Sequence record: NC_018854.1
Reading direction: 5' to 3' (one strand)
Length of the DNA stretch: 64,000 nucleotides
Source of the DNA: Escherichia phage ECBP1
Of this stretch, positions 2,798 to 54,437 are shown one piece after another (position 1 is the first letter of the stretch; the number at the start of each line of letters is the position of its first letter). The position numbers and the translations under genes were made by a program. The notes below the pieces were generated by a model that made no database searches, had not been told where the DNA came from, and saw only the letters and a program-made list of their open reading frames with translations.

Positions 2798-2827
2798 GAC
2801 CTCCCTATTGAAGGGAGGTCTTTTTTT
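2798..2827 (+). terminator. intrinsic terminator
   Basis: GACCTCCC-tattgaa-GGGAGGTC followed by TTTTTTT. Confidence 0.7.
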
Positions 2828-2852: not shown

Positions 2853-3041
2853 ATGTACAAAGAAATTGCATTCTTCTCATTCTTATTAGGTGGTTTAATA
2901 GGTGCAGGATTTGTAGCTATTTCTAATACCTACTTTGGTTCTACTCCAAATTCTGTAACGCAAACCCTCAAGCATGAATGTGAATTGAATATTCCTCGTA
3001 ATCAAAACTGTGTAATGCAGTTCGTACCGGAGAAGAAATGA
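2853..3041 (+). CDS. hypothetical small membrane protein
   Basis: 62-aa ORF; hydrophobic N-terminus FFSFLLGGLIGAGFVAI; stop overlaps next start. Confidence 0.4.
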   Translation: MYKEIAFFSFLLGGLIGAGFVAISNTYFGSTPNSVTQTLKHECELNIPRNQNCVMQFVPEKK

Positions 3042-3298
3042 ATATCCACAATCTACATTTGGTTGAGAAACTGTATGAAGAATACAACAACAACCGACAA
3101 CAATTAGCTAGTTTGAAGAAGTCACCACATATGGTGAAAGTATCATTCAATGGTACGGATTTAGGACCACAAGCCCGTACAAGAATACTTCCTGGACTAC
3201 TGTCCTTTTATCAAAGGAGGGTTGCTGTTTTAGAGAAACGCTTTGAACATTTAGGTGTAGATTTATCACCACTTCCAGATGAAGGAGAAGAGGGATGA
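3038..3298 (+). CDS. hypothetical protein
   Basis: 86-aa ORF in tightly coupled (ATGA-overlap) gene series. Confidence 0.4.
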   Translation: MNIHNLHLVEKLYEEYNNNRQQLASLKKSPHMVKVSFNGTDLGPQARTRILPGLLSFYQRRVAVLEKRFEHLGVDLSPLPDEGEEG

Positions 3299-3504
3299 AA
3301 GTAACAAATCGTTCTGAGAACAATGAGGTAACTTTCGGTGATGTGGAGCCTGCTAATGGTTTTATTTATAACCAGACAGTGTGTTTAAAGATTCACTTAC
3401 CTGATGGTAAACCTGCTGCTGTTGCTGTAGAAACTGGTAAATCATTCTGTCTATCTGCAAGTACATTCGTAACACCAATAAACCTGGAAGGATATTACCT
3501 TTGA
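3295..3504 (+). CDS. hypothetical protein
   Basis: 69-aa ORF, start overlaps upstream stop. Confidence 0.4.
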   Translation: MKVTNRSENNEVTFGDVEPANGFIYNQTVCLKIHLPDGKPAAVAVETGKSFCLSASTFVTPINLEGYYL

Positions 3505-3686
3505 AATTAACACAGTCCCAAGCAATCTTCCTTCGTATGGTTCAAGGTGGCTCTGCCACCAGCAACCGTAATAACAAAACCGCACAGTCTCTTAAGAAGC
3601 TGGGCTTAGTACAGTTCAATGCTGGTCTTGGGTGGTCATTAACCCCTATCGGTGTACTTAAACTCAATGAATTAAAAGGTAACTAA
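3501..3686 (+). CDS. hypothetical protein
   Basis: 61-aa ORF, start overlaps upstream stop. Confidence 0.4.
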   Translation: MKLTQSQAIFLRMVQGGSATSNRNNKTAQSLKKLGLVQFNAGLGWSLTPIGVLKLNELKGN

Positions 3687-4016
3687 ATGAAAACTTTATT
3701 TAAAGGTATTGCAGTAGCTGCACTGATAGCTTTGGCTCCAAATGCACAAGCTATTGAACCAGAACCAATTTTGGAAGGTGCTCAGGCTTATCTGGACAAC
3801 ACCCATGATGAGTTCGGACAAGGATTCTTCATGGGCAGTATGATCTCTTACATCGAGAACACAAATAACTGTGTTCCAGATGGTATGAAGTATTCAGACA
3901 TTCTACCTAAGATTGCCAAAGTAGTTATTTATGACTCTGCAATCCTCAAACTGAAGAATACATCTCAAATTGTTGTGTACTCAGTACACAAGGCGTATCC
4001 CTGCACTAAATCTTAA
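3687..4016 (+). CDS. secreted/periplasmic protein with cleavable signal peptide
   Basis: N-terminus MKTLFKGIAVAALIALAPNAQA has n/h/c regions and AxA cleavage motif. Confidence 0.5.
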   Translation: MKTLFKGIAVAALIALAPNAQAIEPEPILEGAQAYLDNTHDEFGQGFFMGSMISYIENTNNCVPDGMKYSDILPKIAKVVIYDSAILKLKNTSQIVVYSVHKAYPCTKS

Positions 4017-4050
4017 TCAGTAATCCCATTAGCTTTAGGAGAGTAAGTAA

Positions 4051-5103
4051 ATGGCAAGCATTGACTCCTTGACTGTATGTAATTCACGTCAAGCTCGTAA
4101 CTTTATTATTCGTGCCCTGAAAGCAGGTAACGTACCATTCCTGACTTCATCACCTGGCATGGGTAAATCTGCAATCATTCGTTCTATTGCAGAAGAATTT
4201 GGTATGAAGTTGATAGATCATCGTCTGTCTACTTCTGCCCCAGAAGATCTTTCTGGTCTACCATTCCGTAATGGTGACCGTGCAGAGTTTATTCCATTCG
4301 CTGATTTATTCCCTATTGAAGGGGATGAAGTACCAGAAGGTTATAATGGCTGGCTCCTGTTCCTTGATGAGTTCAACTCAGCTAAGAAAGAAGTAGTAGC
4401 TGCTGCATACAAACTAATTCTCGACCGTATGACTGGTCAGAAAAAACTTCATCCTAATGTGATGATTGTCTGTGCTGGTAACAAAGCTACTGACCGTGCC
4501 ATTGTTAATCCTCTGGGTACTGCAATGCAGTCTCGTGTGGTTCACTTTGAAATGGAACTTAACTTCGACATCTTTGTTGAAGATGTAATGATTCCTCAAC
4601 AATGGGATGAACGTCTGGTTGCATTTCTACATGCTAACCCAGGTTATCTGCATGACTTCGACCCAGCCCATAAGAACAAAACATTCTGTTGCCCTCGTAC
4701 TTGGGACTTTGTTAACAAAGACCTTAAGAATCAGCCGGAAGGTGCTCTTCCTGATGAAGATTCTATCTACTATGCAGGTCACGTTACTGCTGGTAAGGCT
4801 ACAGAATTTGTTCAGTTTACCCAGGTATATAATCGTATGATTACGATTGAGAAGGTAGTCAAAGACCCTATGGGTTGTGCACTACCAGAAGATAACAACC
4901 TGTGTTGGGCTACCGTTAACCATCTAGCTAACAAAACTACTGAAGAGAACTTCGCTGATGTTCTTCAGTACATCGAACGCTTTAAAACGTTCACCCATAA
5001 GATTCTGTACTTCCGTACAGTAGGCAGAACATTACCAGAACTTCAGGCTACTCCTGAATGGCGTAAGGCTGCTGCTAATATCTCTCGTTACATTCACGGA
5101 TAA
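4051..5103 (+). CDS. AAA+ ATPase, MoxR-like
   Basis: Walker A SSPGMGKS, Walker B LFLDEFN; 350 aa; immediately followed by vWA partner. Confidence 0.8.
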   Translation: MASIDSLTVCNSRQARNFIIRALKAGNVPFLTSSPGMGKSAIIRSIAEEFGMKLIDHRLSTSAPEDLSGLPFRNGDRAEFIPFADLFPIEGDEVPEGYNGWLLFLDEFNSAKKEVVAAAYKLILDRMTGQKKLHPNVMIVCAGNKATDRAIVNPLGTAMQSRVVHFEMELNFDIFVEDVMIPQQWDERLVAFLHANPGYLHDFDPAHKNKTFCCPRTWDFVNKDLKNQPEGALPDEDSIYYAGHVTAGKATEFVQFTQVYNRMITIEKVVKDPMGCALPEDNNLCWATVNHLANKTTEENFADVLQYIERFKTFTHKILYFRTVGRTLPELQATPEWRKAAANISRYIHG

Positions 5104-5107
5104 AACA

Positions 5108-6283
5108 ATGAACCAATTTCCTCAGCACACACTTAGTGATGAACAACTCATGCGCGAATATGACCGTATTCAGGCGCAGGCGTTTCTCGGACGCAGTGCT
5201 GCCTTCTTTGGTTCATTACTATGTAGTCTTAAATTCTCATGGAAACGTGAGGATTGTCCCACTGCATGTACTGATGGGATAGAACTCCATTTCAACCCAG
5301 ACTTCTTTATCTGGATGTGTCCAGATGCAAGGGAAACAGTATTAATGCATGAACTATGGCATGTGGCATATCTACATGACATCCGTCGTGGAAGCCGTGA
5401 CCCGGAAGTCTGGAACCAGGCATGTGACCACTTCATTAACCTTCAGTTAGAGGAGGATGGTTACAAGTTCACTGGTATTAATGAAGGCATTTGCAAAGAC
5501 CCTCAATATAAAGGATGGGTCGAAGAAGACATCTACGATGACCTGATGAAGAACCCTCAGAAAAGGCAGAAGCCGTCAGGGGGTGCTGGAGCAGGTCTTG
5601 CTGGCGACATGAAATCCCCCACTTCGGGACAGTCCCAGGGTGCTGTCGTCAACAACGTAGTACGTGCAATGCAGAGCCAGAAGATGGCTGGTGGAACAAT
5701 GCCCGGTAAGGGTGCTGGTCGTATGGAAGAGGTTATTACCCAATTCCTTAAACCAGTGGTTCCATGGCAAGAAGTACTCATGAACTTCTTTACCGACATT
5801 GATGACACTCACTATACGTGGGCCAGACCTAACCGTCGTTACACTGACATTTATCTACCTTCCCTGGAAGATGATGAAGGACGTCTACGACACCTAGCCT
5901 ACTTTGAGGATGTATCTGGTTCTATTAGTAGTGCTGACTCTCTGCGTTTTAACTCAGAGGTTGCCTACGTTAAGAGTCAATTCAATCCTAAGAAGATGAC
6001 CCTAATCACCTTCGACGATGTTATCCAGGAAGAAATAGACATCACTGAAGAAGATACTTTCGAAGAGATTAAGATTACTGGACGTGGTGGTACAAACCTG
6101 GAACCAGTACGCGAATGGATTATTAAGAATAAGCCAACCGCTGCAATCATATTCTCTGATATGTATGTTCGTCCAATGGAAGAATTGCCATTTGATATTC
6201 CTATCATCTGGTGTGTTCTGAATAATCCTAATGCTACCGTACCTTTTGGGGAGGTAGTTCATATCCCTAAAGGAATGAAATAA
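5108..6283 (+). CDS. vWA-domain protein with N-terminal HExxH putative metallopeptidase-like domain (MoxR partner)
   Basis: 'MHELWHVAYLHD' HExxH motif; Gly-rich linker; C-terminal vWA-like region; canonical pairing with upstream MoxR ATPase. Confidence 0.7.
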   Translation: MNQFPQHTLSDEQLMREYDRIQAQAFLGRSAAFFGSLLCSLKFSWKREDCPTACTDGIELHFNPDFFIWMCPDARETVLMHELWHVAYLHDIRRGSRDPEVWNQACDHFINLQLEEDGYKFTGINEGICKDPQYKGWVEEDIYDDLMKNPQKRQKPSGGAGAGLAGDMKSPTSGQSQGAVVNNVVRAMQSQKMAGGTMPGKGAGRMEEVITQFLKPVVPWQEVLMNFFTDIDDTHYTWARPNRRYTDIYLPSLEDDEGRLRHLAYFEDVSGSISSADSLRFNSEVAYVKSQFNPKKMTLITFDDVIQEEIDITEEDTFEEIKITGRGGTNLEPVREWIIKNKPTAAIIFSDMYVRPMEELPFDIPIIWCVLNNPNATVPFGEVVHIPKGMK

Positions 6284-6789
6284 TGGTTGTTAATGGTAAT
6301 TCTCTATATCGTTCATCTCAGTTGCTGGATGTCCCAGACCGTAAGATATCCGAGCATGGTGTAAGCTATGGATTAGGTGAAGCTGGTTATGATATTCGTA
6401 TCAAACAGGATATTACCTTCTATCGCTTATTTGGGTTGATTCCAATGGTGAAAGTCGTTGATGGAGGTCAAGTATCACGCCATCTAGGTAAGTTCGCGTT
6501 GGCATCTGCAATTGAGAAGTTCAACATGTCCCCATCCTGTGTAGCTATCGTTCACGATAAGTCTACATGGGCAAGACGTGCATTATCTGTGTTCAATACC
6601 GTAATAGAACCAGGATGGAAAGGGTATTTGACTCTTGAACTGGTCTATCATGGTCGTAAGAAACTACATATCCCGGCTGGTGCTGGGATAGCTCAAGTAT
6701 TATTTCATCTGGTTCAGGAACCTGCTAATTACAATGGCAAGTATATGAACCAGGAAAACAAACCAGTGGCTGCTAGACCTTCAAAATAA
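6283..6789 (+). CDS. dCTP deaminase / dUTPase-family enzyme
   Basis: 'GLGEAGYDIRI' and 'IEPGWKGYLTLELVYHG' match dCD/dUTPase signature motifs. Confidence 0.6.
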   Translation: MVVNGNSLYRSSQLLDVPDRKISEHGVSYGLGEAGYDIRIKQDITFYRLFGLIPMVKVVDGGQVSRHLGKFALASAIEKFNMSPSCVAIVHDKSTWARRALSVFNTVIEPGWKGYLTLELVYHGRKKLHIPAGAGIAQVLFHLVQEPANYNGKYMNQENKPVAARPSK

Positions 6790-6819
6790 AAGGCTATCCG
6801 GCTTAATCAAGGAAACAAC

Positions 6820-7029
6820 ATGTCAGTATTTCAAGTAACTCATGCAACCTCAAATCTACGTTTAACCATTAATGCTGCAAATGTAGTTGCAGTGGAACAG
6901 ATTCCACTGTCTGATTGTGCACGTATTACGCTTGTAAATGAAGGTACTTTGGATACCAAAGAAAGCTATCGTTCAGTACGCAATTACCTGAAAAAAGCTC
7001 TTGCTCCTGCAAGCAAAGACGCTGAGTAA
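6820..7029 (+). CDS. hypothetical protein
   Basis: 69-aa ORF followed by weak stem-loop. Confidence 0.4.
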   Translation: MSVFQVTHATSNLRLTINAANVVAVEQIPLSDCARITLVNEGTLDTKESYRSVRNYLKKALAPASKDAE

Positions 7030-7102
7030 GTAGCTGCCTAAATAGCCCAGCATAGTTGGGCTATTTGAGAAGAAACTAACTCAACCTCACATAGGAACCA
7101 TC

Positions 7103-7345
7103 ATGGAATCTTTAGCAGCAATCCTTGTTTTCTTATTCATATTAGCTGTATACCTTATCCCTACTATCATTGCTTTTGCACGAGGCCATGCCTCTAAGTG
7201 GGGTATTGGTGTACTCAATATCGTATTAGGCTGGTCATTAGTATTCTGGGTAGTAGCACTGATTTGGGCACTGTCTAATAAAGGTCAGAATCAAGTTACA
7301 AACGTAACTGTTGTTCAAACCAATAGTGGCAGTAAAACAGAGTAA
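7103..7345 (+). CDS. small inner-membrane protein, Imm-like (superinfection-immunity family candidate)
   Basis: Two TM segments; 'YLIPTIIAFARGH...GWSLVFWVVALIWAL' resembles superinfection immunity protein family. Confidence 0.45.
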   Translation: MESLAAILVFLFILAVYLIPTIIAFARGHASKWGIGVLNIVLGWSLVFWVVALIWALSNKGQNQVTNVTVVQTNSGSKTE

Positions 7346-7419
7346 CTAACCTAAGCATCATTGCATAGTGGTGCTTGTGGAAGTTACTTCCAGCTCATTG
7401 CTTATCCATCTCCTAACCC

Positions 7420-7450
7420 AAGCCCACCTAACCCGTGGGCTTTTTTATTT
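7420..7450 (+). terminator. intrinsic terminator
   Basis: AAGCCCAC-ctaaccc-GTGGGCTT followed by TTTTTATTT. Confidence 0.7.
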
Positions 7451-7462
7451 ACAGGTACTCTT

Positions 7463-7849
7463 ATGTCAAGCAGACAAAATGGTAAGTCTATCCTGCAAGG
7501 ACTGGACTTAAGTAAGCTGGAACAAACTGCAATGCTTACTTTAGGTAAAACCATACATGACCAAGTGGAAATGGATGGGATTAGTTCTGATGTCTATGCA
7601 AAAATGCAGGCTCTTATTCAGAAAGGATGGCCCAGCAGAGTATTTAATATACCTACATACATTCCCCCAGAACCCCATCTGAAATCTAAGGTAGACCGAA
7701 TCATAGATAAGTTCTGGCTTAACCCATGTGGAGATGACATGCATCTTTACCTGGCTCAAATACAAAAGAATCCTCGTACTAAGGATGTGTTTAAAAGTAA
7801 GAGCACTACCCATCACTACCCATGGTATAGAAGGGGTAGTAAATACTAA
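7463..7849 (+). CDS. hypothetical protein
   Basis: Internal ATG chosen because track start 7361 precedes the terminator; 128 aa. Confidence 0.45.
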   Translation: MSSRQNGKSILQGLDLSKLEQTAMLTLGKTIHDQVEMDGISSDVYAKMQALIQKGWPSRVFNIPTYIPPEPHLKSKVDRIIDKFWLNPCGDDMHLYLAQIQKNPRTKDVFKSKSTTHHYPWYRRGSKY

Positions 7850-8292
7850 TGCGTATCCCATTCCTAAGAAAAAGGGAACGAAATCCTGTTCTTTATAATA
7901 AAGGCATAGAGGATGAGTATGAACTCAACCGTAAAGCTCGTTCCTACACAACAAAACTATTCATGGGGACTAACAACCCTGATAGATTATTGGACTTTGT
8001 TTTTGAACAAGTCTTTATCATATACAGCTTAGCTATGTCTGCTGGTTCACGAGAAGTAAGTGATAAGGCAAGACATGCTCTCTGTATGCTCCGTAAAGAG
8101 TATGAAGCCCTCATGTATGAAGACTTGTACTCCTTTAAAGAAGAAACCGCTGTAGCATGTTCTGTGGCTCTTACTGAAGGTGTAGCAGTATTACAAGAAC
8201 TACCCCGTAGTGAGTTTAAGCTGGTATACGTTCAGGTTAAGAGAATCACAGAGACAAGAAGTGGTATCACTAACTATCTAAGGTCATTCTAA
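7849..8292 (+). CDS. hypothetical protein
   Basis: 147-aa ORF with overlapping start/stop junctions. Confidence 0.45.
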   Translation: MRIPFLRKRERNPVLYNKGIEDEYELNRKARSYTTKLFMGTNNPDRLLDFVFEQVFIIYSLAMSAGSREVSDKARHALCMLRKEYEALMYEDLYSFKEETAVACSVALTEGVAVLQELPRSEFKLVYVQVKRITETRSGITNYLRSF

Positions 8293-41530: not shown

Positions 41531-43477
41531 TTATCGAGGTTGCATATAGGGAGGTAAACCCTCTGCTAATTTTCGATAACGTTTAGCTCGTTCTTCATCT
41601 TCACGACTACGTTCACGTTCTACTGAAGCATTAGAACGGAAGTTCTGTGGAACCAGATTTCCCTGGTCAGCTACCACAGTATTAACAGCAGCATCTAATG
41701 CAGCTCGTGCCCTTGCTAACTCAGCCTCACGAGCAGGGATAGTAGCAGCAAGCCCGCTTTGCCCAGCAGCTACACGACGACGAGTATCAGCAAGTAAGGC
41801 TTCTGCTTGTGTTACCTGGTTCTGAGCATTAGCAATATTACCCTGTACCTGGGTAAGAACATTATCACGAGCAGTAGCTTCAATGCCTTCCCCACGACGT
41901 ACTGAACGTGCTAGTTCTCTGGCAACGGTATCATCAATACGAATACCTCCACCACCTTCATTGGAGATGAACGGATTAAGTGCATCAAGTGCTCGACTAA
42001 TCATACCTTCCGGTACGTTGGTAGTAGACTGCTTAAGAATCTCAGCAGCTACAGCAGGAGACTGCCCGGATTCTTGCATAACATCATTGAGTCGAGCAAT
42101 CATCCATCCTTTTTCAGAACCTTTAAAAGCATCCTTAAGAAGACGGTCTGCTACTTCACCAATAGTAGAGTTGTCACGTAATGCACGAGCATAATTAGCA
42201 GTAATGGTTCCAGTGTTATCTTCAGACTGACGTGCAGCAACTGTATTGCCTGCCATGTTTGAGACTACTTGCTGAGTCTGTAACTGATCAAGGGGTGCTC
42301 CTACTTCTGCCTGTGCAATTAACTGGCGTGCTTCACTCCACGGCATATCCTTATAACCACCTACACCTAAGTCAGGCAATGCAGCCCAGGTCTTAGAAAG
42401 GTTACCATTCTTACGGTCATTGAAGATTGCTTCTGCTATTTTGTCCTGTACTTCAGGAGTCATTTGCTGATTACGCCAATCTGAACCAAGCACTTTAGGG
42501 GCATAGTCTTCCAGAGTAGCTTTATTAATCTGAAATGCACCTACAGGAGAATGACCTTGTGACGGGTTATTAATCATACTCTGTTGATGATTAGTAACCT
42601 CACCTAGTGTCATCTCAGTAATAGGCTTATCAGTAGCAGCAAAGGTATAGGTTGCATCATAAGGAGAACCAGAACGAGTACCAGCAGTTCCCGGAGCAGA
42701 GCCAGAAGGAGACGTAGCGTAAGTACCTGGGAATCTCTGGTTTACACCTCGCATGATTGCAGCACGTACACCTGGAGAAGCATTCTGCATAGCAGACTCT
42801 GCCAATGTAAGAGCATCCATAGGAGTGGAAGCACTACGGAAAATATCCGTCAGTATACCGGATGCAGCTTGTGAATCAGCATCATTACGTTGAGCCACAC
42901 CCAAATCAAAGCGGTTCTGTGCTTGGTTAATAGCCTGACCACCTTGCCCTTGAAGACGGCTCAGCATATCCAGTTGTTGGTCGGCAGGGAGTGCAGATAA
43001 TGCATCACGGGTTTGGTCCAATGCAGTATTAATACGGTTCTGGTCACCAGACTGATAAGCCTCAGACAATAAACGAATAGCTGGAGAAGCATTATCTAAT
43101 GCAGAGTCAGTATTCTGTAAACGACCAAAACGATAAGCATTGTAGTCATTAATTCCCTGCTGACCTTGTTGAGTCAGAAGAGTACTTGCTCGCTCATCCA
43201 GATTCTGCAGGGTATGTTGGTTTACGAGTGAAGGGTCAACCCCCTGGAACAATGCACCGGATGCCAGAGCATTACGATACTCAGTAGGGTCTTGATACTG
43301 CATAGCATTCATCATGACGGCATTGCCAGCCTCCTGCTTGGCAGCGTTCTGGAAGTTACCCAGTGCATCACTTAAGCCGGAGGTGGCGTTACCAATCATG
43401 TTGCCAAATGTGCGAATGCTGTCACCAACTCCAGAGAAGTTAGGTGCATCAACATTACGCCATGTAATTTGAGCCAT
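41531..43477 (-). CDS. virion internal protein (N4 gp51-like position)
   Basis: 648 aa, Gln/Ala-rich, between ejection-protein genes and vRNAP. Confidence 0.45.
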   Translation of the reverse strand: MAQITWRNVDAPNFSGVGDSIRTFGNMIGNATSGLSDALGNFQNAAKQEAGNAVMMNAMQYQDPTEYRNALASGALFQGVDPSLVNQHTLQNLDERASTLLTQQGQQGINDYNAYRFGRLQNTDSALDNASPAIRLLSEAYQSGDQNRINTALDQTRDALSALPADQQLDMLSRLQGQGGQAINQAQNRFDLGVAQRNDADSQAASGILTDIFRSASTPMDALTLAESAMQNASPGVRAAIMRGVNQRFPGTYATSPSGSAPGTAGTRSGSPYDATYTFAATDKPITEMTLGEVTNHQQSMINNPSQGHSPVGAFQINKATLEDYAPKVLGSDWRNQQMTPEVQDKIAEAIFNDRKNGNLSKTWAALPDLGVGGYKDMPWSEARQLIAQAEVGAPLDQLQTQQVVSNMAGNTVAARQSEDNTGTITANYARALRDNSTIGEVADRLLKDAFKGSEKGWMIARLNDVMQESGQSPAVAAEILKQSTTNVPEGMISRALDALNPFISNEGGGGIRIDDTVARELARSVRRGEGIEATARDNVLTQVQGNIANAQNQVTQAEALLADTRRRVAAGQSGLAATIPAREAELARARAALDAAVNTVVADQGNLVPQNFRSNASVERERSREDEERAKRYRKLAEGLPPYMQPR

Positions 43478-49443: not shown

Positions 49444-50664
49444 TTAAAGACTACCCGGTACTGGGAGTTTAGCGAAATCTTCATCACTCATAGCGAGTGG
49501 GTTTACAATAGGCGTTGCTTTACGTGTAGCAGCCCGATTAAGGGAAGCTGCTTTAGCTTGCTCACTGTTAGCCAGAGTCTGCTTAGGTTGTGCTACACGC
49601 ACTACCGGCTGAACTGCTGGTTTAACTGCTTGTACTGGTTCAGGCTTAGACACTTGGTTAAATGCTCCCTGCTGTGCAAGAAGGTTACCAACGTAGTTAT
49701 AAGCCTGAATAAACGGAGTACCTACCGGAATCTGACCTAACACCTGAAGACGATTCACTTCATTAGCAATGGTGTCATAAATACCATTCTCACGCTGTTC
49801 GTGAATGGTGTGGAGTAAGCCACGATTCTGATAAAGAGCATCTTTACTGGCAGCATCCCATGTCGAGCTAATAACACCTAATGTAGCTTGTCCTTCTTGA
49901 GTAGACTTTAAGTCGTCAATTTCGGTTGCAAAATCTGCTTCGGTGTCTGTAACACGGTGTTTGCCACCCTGGTAGTTAATTTCCTCTTCCGGATTAAAGT
50001 CCAGAGGATCTGTACCAGAGTCTTTCAACAACTTTTTAATGGCTTCAGGATTCTTCTTATCCAGGTCAATCAGGAAAGAAAGTTTTTCCTCATCCATTAA
50101 ACCGTTGTTCTGTAACATCAGCATTACCTTACGGTACGGCTGAAGTTCTTGCATCTTACGAGTATAGTTAGCACCCATCTGCATCAGGCTAATGGCCTCC
50201 TCCGGTGAACGGGGAGTAATCATTTTGCCGTTAGCTTTAAAAGGAGCCATCAACTTCTCATAACCTTCCTTATAGTTGAAGTCAGCAGGCAGACCTTCAG
50301 ACTGTTTGCCTTCTTCTTTCTGTTCCTGGCCTGGTTCAGCAGTAGAAGGTTCAGCTTCAGTAATCGGCTTACCGTTACTATCAACTTCTGTGTCAACAAC
50401 TTTATCATCAACTTTATCAGAAGTTAAAGAATTTGCTGAATCATCTTCATCTGCGTCAGTTTCGGGGGAGGTTTCTTCGGTTGGTAGGTCTTCAACAGCA
50501 GGGGTGTCAATTTCTTCATCAGGAGTCTGTACGCCATTGGTTTCTGGGTTGTTCTGAGTGGAAGTATCTTCCTCAGCAATAATAGCTGGGGCTTCCATAT
50601 TCAGAATCTCATCATCCGACATTGCGAGAATGTCGGAAGCTGTGGTTGCAGCTTCCGTAGTCAT
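49444..50664 (-). CDS. putative scaffolding protein
   Basis: 406 aa, strongly acidic N-terminal half, located between portal and capsid genes. Confidence 0.45.
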   Translation of the reverse strand: MTTEAATTASDILAMSDDEILNMEAPAIIAEEDTSTQNNPETNGVQTPDEEIDTPAVEDLPTEETSPETDADEDDSANSLTSDKVDDKVVDTEVDSNGKPITEAEPSTAEPGQEQKEEGKQSEGLPADFNYKEGYEKLMAPFKANGKMITPRSPEEAISLMQMGANYTRKMQELQPYRKVMLMLQNNGLMDEEKLSFLIDLDKKNPEAIKKLLKDSGTDPLDFNPEEEINYQGGKHRVTDTEADFATEIDDLKSTQEGQATLGVISSTWDAASKDALYQNRGLLHTIHEQRENGIYDTIANEVNRLQVLGQIPVGTPFIQAYNYVGNLLAQQGAFNQVSKPEPVQAVKPAVQPVVRVAQPKQTLANSEQAKAASLNRAATRKATPIVNPLAMSDEDFAKLPVPGSL

Positions 50665-53314: not shown

Positions 53315-53821
53315 TTATTCCTGTTCAAAAAGTTTACGGTCAGCCTGAATCTGTTTACCCAACTCAATTAGTTGGCTGTCACGGAGTCTAACAGTTGCCC
53401 GGAGTTCTTCAACCAAACGTCTGCCTTCTTCAAGACTGTTGTCGAGTCTGGCTGCATGGCTTGCAAGACTTCTGCACTCAAAGGTTCCGGCTTCGGCTTG
53501 ACGTTTATATACCGATGCTCGTCTTTCAGACTGTTGCATCCGGCTGTCATAATCACTGCTAACGCGAGCAAGCTCGCTTGCGTAATTACTCTCAGCCGTC
53601 TGCAACCGGGAAGTGAGTAACCCGACTTCGTAACTATGGTTTCTTTGGAGAGCATTGTATTTGTCCTGTAATTTTTGTAGTGCCTTCTGATCTTCAACCT
53701 TTTGGGCATCCCACTTCTTTTGAACAGTAGACTGTCCATTGGAATTACCCCAAAAGTAAATGGTGGCCCCGAGGACCACCACCAGAAGATAAGGCCAACC
53801 TTTAGAGATTAGCATCTTCAT
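53315..53821 (-). CDS. i-spanin (Rz-like)
   Basis: N-terminal TM '[16 protein letters not shown]' then coiled-coil periplasmic domain; start taken at internal Met. Confidence 0.55.
53368..53655 (-). CDS. o-spanin (Rz1-like lipoprotein) nested in +1 frame of i-spanin gene
   Basis: Signal peptide + lipobox-like '[12 protein letters not shown]' then Pro-rich mature region; fully embedded in i-spanin ORF. Confidence 0.45.
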   Translation of the reverse strand: MLSKETIVTKSGYSLPGCRRLRVITQASLLALAVIMTAGCNSLKDEHRYINVKPKPEPLSAEVLQAMQPDSTTVLKKADVWLKNSGQLLDSVTAN

Positions 53822-54437
53822 TACATGCCTCCAGTGGCACATTGCCTATTCGGTTAGCTACCCAACCATACGTAAAGTCTGGCATGTTTAATGAGGTGTA
53901 GTGGTTAAGTTGTTTAGCATCAAGTAACTTAATCATTACCTGACATGCTGCAACTTTGCCTCGTTTTTTCTGTAATGCTTTATATGCATTAACAGTACTT
54001 GTACCGACTTTACCATCAACCTGTATTTTAGGGTAGTCTTTGCCATCACGGGACATTTCATTAAGAGATTGCTGCAACCACTTAGCCGGACGGGTTACAC
54101 CCGTATTAACACCAGCATCTACCAGCTTATGTGTTACAGCAGGAGATATATCAGCGAAGGCTACGAAGTTAGGCTTAAGTACGTAATCATCAATGTATAT
54201 CTCAGCAGCCATCTCTTTAGATAAACCCTTCATAGAACCATCCCAGCCATACTCAGTAGCCAGAACTTCTTTGTGAGATTTAGCTACAGCTTGGGTAATA
54301 CCATGATTGGTTTCACCACCTGGGTCACGAGGATTATTTACATATCCCCCTTCCATATAAAACACTGCCCCCAGGATAGCAGCGACAACTCCTCCCACTG
54401 CACCACCTTTCGTAGCAAGTTTCTGTTTAGCTTTCAT
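53802..54437 (-). CDS. endolysin: GH108 N-acetylmuramidase with possible N-terminal SAR signal-anchor
   Basis: 'EGGYVNNPRDPGGETNHGIT' GH108 signature; Gly/Ala-rich weakly hydrophobic N-terminus 'KGGAVGGVVAAILGAVF'. Confidence 0.75.
   Translation of the reverse strand: MKAKQKLATKGGAVGGVVAAILGAVFYMEGGYVNNPRDPGGETNHGITQAVAKSHKEVLATEYGWDGSMKGLSKEMAAEIYIDDYVLKPNFVAFADISPAVTHKLVDAGVNTGVTRPAKWLQQSLNEMSRDGKDYPKIQVDGKVGTSTVNAYKALQKKRGKVAACQVMIKLLDAKQLNHYTSLNMPDFTYGWVANRIGNVPLEACNEDANL

Follow-up and report, generated by a model that had tools for sequence, protein, structure and literature searches.

Two predicted envelope proteins of the N4-type coliphage ECBP1: a hypervariable relative of Rap1a/Tai4a immunity proteins and a member of the Imm family

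Do two short open reading frames (ORFs) of Escherichia phage ECBP1 encode proteins that guard the envelope of the infected cell, and if so, against which attackers? The question concerns a 64,000-base stretch of this genome (NC_018854.1), analysed as a whole and referred to below as the window. ORF-A (3687..4016, plus strand) is predicted to encode a secreted periplasmic protein of 109 aa with a Rap1a/Tai4a fold, and is found at the position of gp17.3 in phage G7C. ORF-B (7103..7345, plus strand) is predicted to encode an inner-membrane protein of 80 aa from the Imm family, and is the orthologue of G7C gp27.1. A first-pass annotation had described these two ORFs, which are both present at these positions, as a single early-region feature and had proposed both products as candidates for superinfection exclusion.

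Both are genuine genes and not chance ORFs, since each is preceded by a Shine-Dalgarno-like sequence, matches a PHROG family from end to end and is under purifying selection. They are also unrelated, independent accessory modules, as Moonfish, Jgk1 and one more distant N4-like contig carry ORF-A but not ORF-B. A joint account, in which one of the two accessory envelope genes encodes a wall-enzyme inhibitor and the other an entry block, appears to us reasonably probable.

Export signal, fold and alleles of ORF-A

The first 22 residues of ORF-A (3687..3752, plus strand) form a predicted Sec signal peptide for signal peptidase I, in agreement with the first-pass annotation. The N-terminus reads MKTLFKGIAVAALIALAPNAQA, followed across the predicted cleavage site by IEPEP. 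The signal is called from sequence features: the n-region contains K2 and K6, the h-region covers residues 7-17 (11 aa) with a mean Kyte-Doolittle hydropathy of 2.67, alanines are found at -3 and -1 of the A-Q-A after which cleavage is predicted, and a lipobox cysteine is absent. This layout is kept in 20 of 20 aligned family members. No part of the mature protein has the hydrophobicity of a membrane span (maximum 19-residue mean 1.0).

The mature domain (3753..4013, plus strand) has 87 aa in five predicted helices and is marked by the motif QG[YF]F.G and by two cysteines, C62 and C106, that are invariant in the family. These cysteines are separated by 44 residues, and C106 is located three residues from the C-terminus. 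Rap1a has a signal peptide of 26 residues, five helices and a C78-C122 disulfide, and it forms a stable dimer (PMC3852654). The spacing of C62 and C106 is thus equal to that of the Rap1a disulfide.

The kinship with Rap1a is remote and rests in part on a predicted model. ORF-A itself scores 16.1 bits against the Pfam family PF18602 (Rap1a; E 0.017, model positions 17-90 of 90), below the gathering cut-off of 27.7 bits, and this is its only Pfam match at E <= 0.1. In a set of 20 divergent family members, PF18602 is the top Pfam match in all 20 (E <= 0.1, best E 1e-6), and other Pfam families are matched by at most two of the 20 members each. A precomputed PF18602 match is also present in cluster P0018, a member of the family. 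The AlphaFold2 model of ORF-A, built from a 10-sequence alignment, has a mean predicted local distance difference test (pLDDT) score of 82.6, exceeding 90 through the mature domain, and contains five helices in the compact arrangement of Rap1a. When this model is compared with the PDB using Foldseek, six of the eight top matches are Rap1a (3ZFI, 4BI8) or Agrobacterium Tai4 (6IJE, 6IJF), with probabilities of 0.60-0.91 and TM-scores of 0.51-0.62; all others are at <=0.11. From the profile matches and the model, ORF-A very likely has the Rap1a fold.

Searches of large sequence collections return the phage family itself. Only seven matches to ORF-A come from an exhaustive phmmer search that covered 1.8 billion representative proteins; six are family-sized, phage-type small proteins, and the seventh is a short stretch in a protein of 2,458 aa. 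A profile search of a 5.8-billion protein set with the ORF-A family gives 139 matches, and the best 120 of these 139 are all phage family members. No relatives of ORF-A are found by tblastn against plasmids, and an NCBIfam scan of ORF-A gives only signal-peptide noise. Where the genomic context is readable, the homologues come from N4-like phages and are encoded directly upstream of the gp24 ATPase gene or beside a small AAA protein.

The assignment of the family to Rap1a is not new, as it is already found in UniProt and GenBank. The Bp4 orthologue (UniProt X2KQV6, 90% identical) is named "Rap1a immunity protein domain-containing protein", and GenBank names the orthologue Tai4 or Rap1a in 24-32N, UE-M6, PBM-2 and Moonfish. 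G7C gp17.3 and these orthologues share the position of ORF-A directly upstream of the gp24 ATPase gene. Three proteins of uncultured Caudovirales in BFVD (A0A6J7W580, A0A6J5LJN0 and A0A6J5KWX0), which UniProt names "Rap1a immunity protein domain-containing", also match the ORF-A fold with probabilities of 0.44-1.0 and 12-16% identity. Capture of the Rap1a immunity fold by phages thus extends beyond the N4-like group, because unrelated uncultured phages also encode fold matches.

The part that deserves a second look, and that is absent from the first-pass annotation, is the allele structure of ORF-A. ORF-A matches 55 GenBank phage records, nearly all from Gamaleyavirus, and each of the 55 carries a homologue. 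Between allele classes the protein identity is 37-42%, with the proteins of G7C, UE-M6 and Moonfish 38-42% identical to ORF-A, and the flanking genes are 93-98% identical; the G7C allele belongs to a different class and is 38% identical to the allele of the window. A four-phage nucleotide alignment, a table of identities per gene and the synonymous divergence (dS) together place a hypervariable cassette at 3700..4000 (plus strand, approximate limits). The divergence begins ~13 nt past the ATG and stops ~15 nt before the stop codon, and the flanks are nearly identical.

When 122 sequences (121 from databases and that of the window) are grouped at 70% identity, eight classes are obtained, with 27-61% identity between classes. 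The window belongs to class I, which is the second largest class yet a minority, with 12 of the 122 sequences and 15 of 41 named phages; ORF-A is 89-95% identical to the class I alleles. Between classes dS is saturated (1.4-1.6 or undefined), compared with 0.15-0.44 in the flanking genes. Within the class of the window, the ratio of nonsynonymous to synonymous divergence (dN/dS) is 0.17-0.27, i.e., the alleles are under purifying selection. We infer that the alleles are old and functional, that recombination at the conserved ends of the gene exchanges them, and that some balancing selection maintains them. This structure fits the narrow effector specificity known for the Rap1a family.

ORF-B as a member of the Imm family

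The likeness of ORF-B to superinfection-immunity proteins, first suggested by a motif, is strong at the profile level. ORF-B scores 61.6 bits against Pfam PF14373 (Imm_superinfect; E 6.4e-17), matching positions 1-42 of the 42 in the model, where the curated gathering cut-off is 27.9 bits and T4 Imm itself scores 58.2 bits. Its match among the PHROG families is phrog_1039, "immunity to superinfection" (E 5e-30). With BLASTP, residues 1-75 of ORF-B align to residues 1-83 of T4 Imm with 27% identity and 52% positives (E 2e-10). The two proteins are similar in size (80 and 83 aa), align over their full length and have two hydrophobic segments joined by a basic loop. However, their identity is only 27-31%, and the C-terminal tail of ORF-B is unrelated to that of T4 Imm.

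The two transmembrane segments proposed in the first pass are recovered as hydrophobic stretches at residues ~4-26 and ~34-57, with 19-residue mean hydropathies of up to 2.87 and 2.26, and the basic loop between them reads RGHASKW. Based on the charge distribution, in which RGHASKW fits a cytoplasmic loop, both termini would be periplasmic. An alignment of seven Imm proteins, from the phage of the window, G7C, T4, a Klebsiella T4-like phage, an Acinetobacter myovirus, a Salmonella siphovirus and a mycobacteriophage, thus covers podo-, myo- and siphoviruses. Its sole invariant positions are P20, R27, W44 and W49 of ORF-B. Of these, R27 and W44 align with R33 and W50 of T4 Imm. In a 2026 preprint, T4 Imm is reported to bind gp29, the tape measure protein, and the substitutions R33A and W50A to weaken exclusion (bioRxiv 10.64898/2026.03.06.709160). 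The equivalents of both residues are therefore kept in ORF-B.

The AlphaFold2 model of ORF-B has a mean pLDDT of 76.6 and contains four helices (residues 2-17, 19-26, 32-42 and 46-57), with breaks at P20 and at G43-W44-S45. These modelled helices are compatible with the helical membrane core described in the same study (bioRxiv 10.64898/2026.03.06.709160). Orthologues in G7C (gp27.1), Bp4, St11Ph5, IME11 and others are 84-96% identical and occupy the same position after gp26/gp27. They differ from ORF-B in the length and sequence of the C-terminal tail, as seen for the 86 aa of gp27.1 compared with 80 aa here. The dN/dS against the orthologues is 0.13-0.32, i.e., ORF-B is under purifying selection. 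The original genome record of G7C labels gp27.1 a "putative membrane immunity protein", and the same label is found in many relatives. Outside Gamaleyavirus, the core of ORF-B is nearest to proteins of Acinetobacter myoviruses (60% identity), followed by those of T4-like phages (49-54%). PF14373-type proteins are found in very diverse phages, with 910 phage records matched. With its absence from Moonfish, Jgk1 and the distant N4-like contig, ORF-B behaves as a dispensable insert.

Judged from its sequence, ORF-B almost certainly belongs to the T4 Imm family. Its function is probably exclusion, by analogy with T4 Imm, with the reservation that the partner known from T4 is a tape measure protein, which has no established equivalent in N4-type podoviruses. 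In the mechanism that we propose, ORF-B would be a helical hairpin in the inner membrane with both termini in the periplasm. As T4 Imm does, it would bind an inner-membrane pore-forming ejection protein of the incoming phage, and so would stop genome translocation by phages that attack an already infected cell. This topology, target and phenotype are those expected from homology. As the phage is short-tailed and of the N4 type, without an established tape measure protein, the binding partner of ORF-B must differ from that of T4 Imm or belong to another phage.

A late protein of 406 aa encoded beside the capsid gene (49444-50664, minus strand) matches phrog_2120, "tail length tape measure protein", at E 3e-146. 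This putative label is odd for a short-tailed phage, and Pfam gave no match. It is of interest because T4 Imm binds the tape measure protein.

Genomic setting of the two genes

The window comes from a Gamaleyavirus (family Schitoviridae), i.e., a G7C-like, N4-type coliphage. The closest GenBank phage records in the collection searched are only ~92% identical to it, and positions 3000-7900 have ~92% nucleotide identity to PE007, PD38, Bp4, St11Ph5 and ~50 other phages. The IMG/VR contig UViG_2595698805_000001 (69,855 bp) is 100% identical to the window in all genes compared, and by position arithmetic the window is formed by the final 64,000 bases of this contig. The N4 type is also seen in a virion RNA polymerase of 3,576 aa with N4-specific Pfam domains, in an N4-type RNAPII subunit (382-1599) and in an SU10-type portal, all encoded in the window.

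The view of 3687-7345 as one feature does not hold, as ORF-A and ORF-B are separated by ~3 kb containing genes for an AAA ATPase, a DUF2201 metallopeptidase/vWA protein, a dCTP deaminase and a 69-aa ORF. The MoxR-like AAA ATPase (4051-5103, plus strand) is similar to N4 gp24, and the DUF2201 metallopeptidase/vWA protein (5108-6283, plus strand) is similar to N4 gp25; the two genes are conserved as a pair. A weak Pfam match to bpX6 (E 0.0022, below the cut-off), a domain of MoxR-vWA-beta-propeller ternary systems, is seen in the small ORF at 6820-7029 (plus strand). This ORF evolves fast, with a dN/dS of 0.34-0.73.

The label "early region" has to be replaced as well. Both genes are located downstream of the RNAPII subunit genes and adjoin the gp24/gp25 homologues. 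In N4, RNAPII transcribes gp24 and gp25 as middle genes (PMC4193335; notes of the G7C record). Because of this synteny, ORF-A and ORF-B are assigned, by analogy with N4, to a block of middle genes and not to the early genes. A sigma-70 promoter scan of the region found 5 sites, compared with a mean of 12.7 in shuffled sequence, and is uninformative on expression.

Several possible signals flank the two genes. An intergenic inverted repeat, AATAGCCCA...TGGGCTATT (7041..7067, plus strand), is found just upstream of ORF-B, at a place equivalent to the stem_loop feature annotated after gp27 in G7C. A terminator-like GC-rich hairpin followed by a T run (7420..7442, plus strand) lies 75 nt past ORF-B, as detected by a consensus scan only. 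A strong terminator-like hairpin with 9 pairs (6 of them G-C) and a T run (2798-2820, plus strand) directly follows the head-decoration gene, and a stem-loop is annotated at the matching place in G7C. This hairpin marks the start of an operon of small ORFs whose last gene is ORF-A, with the ATG of ORF-A immediately after the stop codon of the ORF upstream. A hotspot of indels lies between gp24 and the gene for the decoration protein, and its small ORFs at 3038-3504 vary among relatives: the ORF at 3038-3298 (plus strand) is found in only some of the six loci compared, and that at 3295-3504 (plus strand) has a counterpart in none of the six.

Away from this region, the ORF at 30162-30680 (plus strand, 172 aa) contains a Tad2-like (Thoeris anti-defence 2-like) domain (PF11195, E 1.1e-23, residues 94-170) and adjoins an N4 gp49-like gene (29677-30069, PF13876). 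It is likely an anti-defence gene.

Possible targets and competing explanations

Rap1a of Serratia marcescens ("Tai4a", PF18602; 3ZFI, 4BI8) and Tai4 of Agrobacterium (6IJE, 6IJF) are periplasmic immunity proteins against the type VI secreted peptidoglycan endopeptidases Tae4/Ssp1. Rap1a occludes the active site of Ssp1 and is highly specific for this partner; Ssp1 is an NlpC/P60-like endopeptidase of the Tae4 family and cleaves the gamma-D-Glu-mDAP bond. By analogy with these proteins, ORF-A may well inhibit a peptidoglycan hydrolase. After Sec export and removal of the 22-residue signal peptide, it would adopt, in the periplasm, a Rap1a/Tai4a-type bundle of five helices stabilised by a disulfide. 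It would then inhibit, by stoichiometric steric hindrance, a Tae4-like (NlpC/P60-type) endopeptidase that enters the periplasm from outside, either as an effector from a neighbour's type VI secretion system (T6SS) or as the wall-degrading enzyme of a competing phage or tailocin. In this way ORF-A would preserve the wall of the infected cell until lysis by the phage itself. That the attackers blocked are T6SS effectors is a tentative suggestion, and that they are enzymes of rival phages is slightly more doubtful.

Rap1a and Tai4 are encoded in T6SS clusters, whereas ORF-A is found in a virulent phage with no adjacent Tae4/Ssp1 effector. The neighbours of ORF-A are small phage ORFs and the gp24 ATPase gene, and none of the adjoining genes encodes a cognate effector of the Tae4/Ssp1 type. 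A wider scan for partners covered the late, virion and flanking middle-gene proteins, i.e., the genes outside the replication block at ~9.2-29.7 kb. The only wall-related proteins in this set are a GH108 muramidase endolysin with a PG_binding_3 domain (53802-54437, Pfam/PHROG) and spanin-like proteins. Because no partner effector was found among these proteins of the phage, ORF-A looks like an orphan immunity gene with a target from outside the phage.

Individual virion proteins were also considered as partners. The GenBank label "lysozyme containing protein" on the gp51-like protein of SP5M could not be reproduced. Co-variation with the class of ORF-A was tested for two large ejection-type proteins, those similar to gp51 and gp53. 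Throughout the genus the gp53-like protein keeps an identity of 91-98%, and it shows no dimorphism. The gp51-like virion protein (41531-43477, minus strand, 648 aa) has two forms across Gamaleyavirus, 94-98% identical to that of the window in 8 phages and ~62% identical in the rest. Seven phages combine ORF-A class I with form A, the form of the window, and 8 combine it with form B, and among the other classes 1 has form A and 25 have form B (Fisher p = 0.002). The gp51-like protein was rejected as a strict partner because this linkage is loose and the p-value can be explained by shared ancestry. The N-terminal 358 residues of the gp51-like protein match PDB 11mn, a "66 kDa protein" with 10 chains, at E 7.6e-114.

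Phage T4 suggests a different explanation. In the periplasm, T4 Sp (spackle) inhibits the tail lysozyme gp5, and T4 pairs Imm with it. ORF-A could likewise inhibit the wall-degrading enzyme of superinfecting particles and together with ORF-B form a two-layer set like Sp and Imm. We consider this unlikely, even though the resemblance in function is real: both would be small, helical, signal-peptide-bearing periplasmic proteins of lytic phages that possibly neutralise a wall enzyme. ORF-A is in addition cysteine-paired and from a family known for blocking the active site of a peptidoglycan hydrolase, the same genome encodes an Imm homologue, and a gene that is present in 55 of 55 matching records yet is hypervariable with ancient alleles is what a phage-phage arms race would produce. 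However, the family of ORF-A inhibits NlpC/P60-type endopeptidases and not lysozymes, no sequence or fold kinship between Sp and ORF-A is detectable, and structures of Sp are absent among the fold matches listed. No peptidoglycan hydrolase domain is found in the virion and ejection proteins of the phage that were scanned, the lysozyme label of the SP5M protein was not reproduced, the gp53-like protein is not dimorphic, and the loose tracking of ORF-A class by the gp51-like protein (7/8/1/25) is explicable by shared descent. Several phages also possess ORF-A without ORF-B. Thus, the earlier proposal of exclusion candidates stands for ORF-B, by homology, but finds no specific evidence for ORF-A, whose only relatives are Rap1a/Tai4a. 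ORF-A could instead act on a host enzyme, such as an NlpC/P60-type endopeptidase of E. coli or another periplasmic autolysin, and serve wall stabilisation, the timing of lysis or the countering of a host defence that kills through the envelope. The fixed place of ORF-A in a middle-gene operon directly upstream of the gp24 ATPase gene, in close and distant N4-like phages alike, agrees with this, as does the lack of any partner effector among the scanned proteins of the phage, and presence in every one of the 55 matching records suggests a core role in infection and not an occasional add-on. Yet a conserved target would not explain eight classes with 27-61% identity and saturated dS, and nothing in this analysis links ORF-A to a host protein. 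Both the host-enzyme target and these purposes appear quite improbable.

For ORF-B, the alternative is that it is not an exclusion protein in this phage but has another membrane role, acting for instance on a host transporter or on the membrane potential, or that it excludes only unrelated phages such as the T-even phages. The defined partner of T4 Imm is a protein not known in N4-type podoviruses, the 910 records with PF14373 proteins come from very different phages and almost none of these proteins has been tested, the nearest relatives of the core outside the genus are from Acinetobacter myoviruses (60%) and T4-like phages (49-54%), and the gene is missing from several relatives. On the other hand, ORF-B keeps the invariant residues required for the activity of T4 Imm, the gene is under purifying selection, and exclusion is the sole function ever demonstrated for the Imm family; we consider this alternative rather unlikely.

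The account of ORF-A as an inhibitor of external wall enzymes and ORF-B as an entry block has to be set against several observations. The score of ORF-A against PF18602 is under the curated cut-off, its structural alignments to Rap1a and Tai4 have only 6-8% identity, and sequence searches of the PDB with ORF-A alone or with profiles of 10 or 20 sequences found nothing relevant. All detectable sequence homologues of ORF-A are phage proteins, with no bridge to a bacterial effector-immunity pair, and the late and virion proteins and those of the flanking middle genes have no Tae4, NlpC/P60 or CHAP domain detectable with Pfam or PHROG. Immunity to a single type of effector may also be of little profit to a lytic phage whose latent period is short. 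As to ORF-B, the protein bound by T4 Imm is without an established equivalent in N4-type podoviruses, and some close relatives manage without the gene. Finally, our literature searches, which covered Tai4/Rap1a in phages, Imm in G7C or N4-like phages, PF14373 and T6SS immunity encoded by phages, turned up no experimental work on ORF-A or ORF-B in any N4-like phage. The export signal, the fold and the cysteine pair of ORF-A are supported by sequence and model, and its inhibitor activity and the identity of its target would follow from its relatives.

In the literature searched, no discussion of a T6SS-type immunity protein in a virulent phage was found, nor any paper on a T6SS-type immunity fold fixed as an allele series in a virulent phage genus; a review of N4-like diversity (PMC7650795) contains none of the terms looked for. 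Both genes are already annotated in close relatives, so that the finding is real but largely ordinary, and the Imm-like call for ORF-B repeats the G7C annotation of 2011. With its functional residues intact in a phage without a known tape measure protein, ORF-B nevertheless offers a way to probe recognition by Imm outside T4.

For ORF-A, the significance is that a genus of virulent phages has fixed a T6SS-type fold in the form of an ancient, sharply bounded series of alleles that recombine. It can be speculated, although we hold it to be doubtful, that an orphan, hypervariable gene with the Rap1a/Tai4a fold in a lineage of virulent coliphages transiently immunises the wall of the host against Tae4-type endopeptidases. 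If this is true, the attackers would be either neighbouring bacteria, with the phage providing T6SS immunity, or rival phages, with ORF-A being a spackle-like factor built on a T6SS immunity fold, and the eight ancient classes would mirror matching to different attackers. The allele series suggests that phages join the effector-immunity arms race over the bacterial cell wall or borrow from it.

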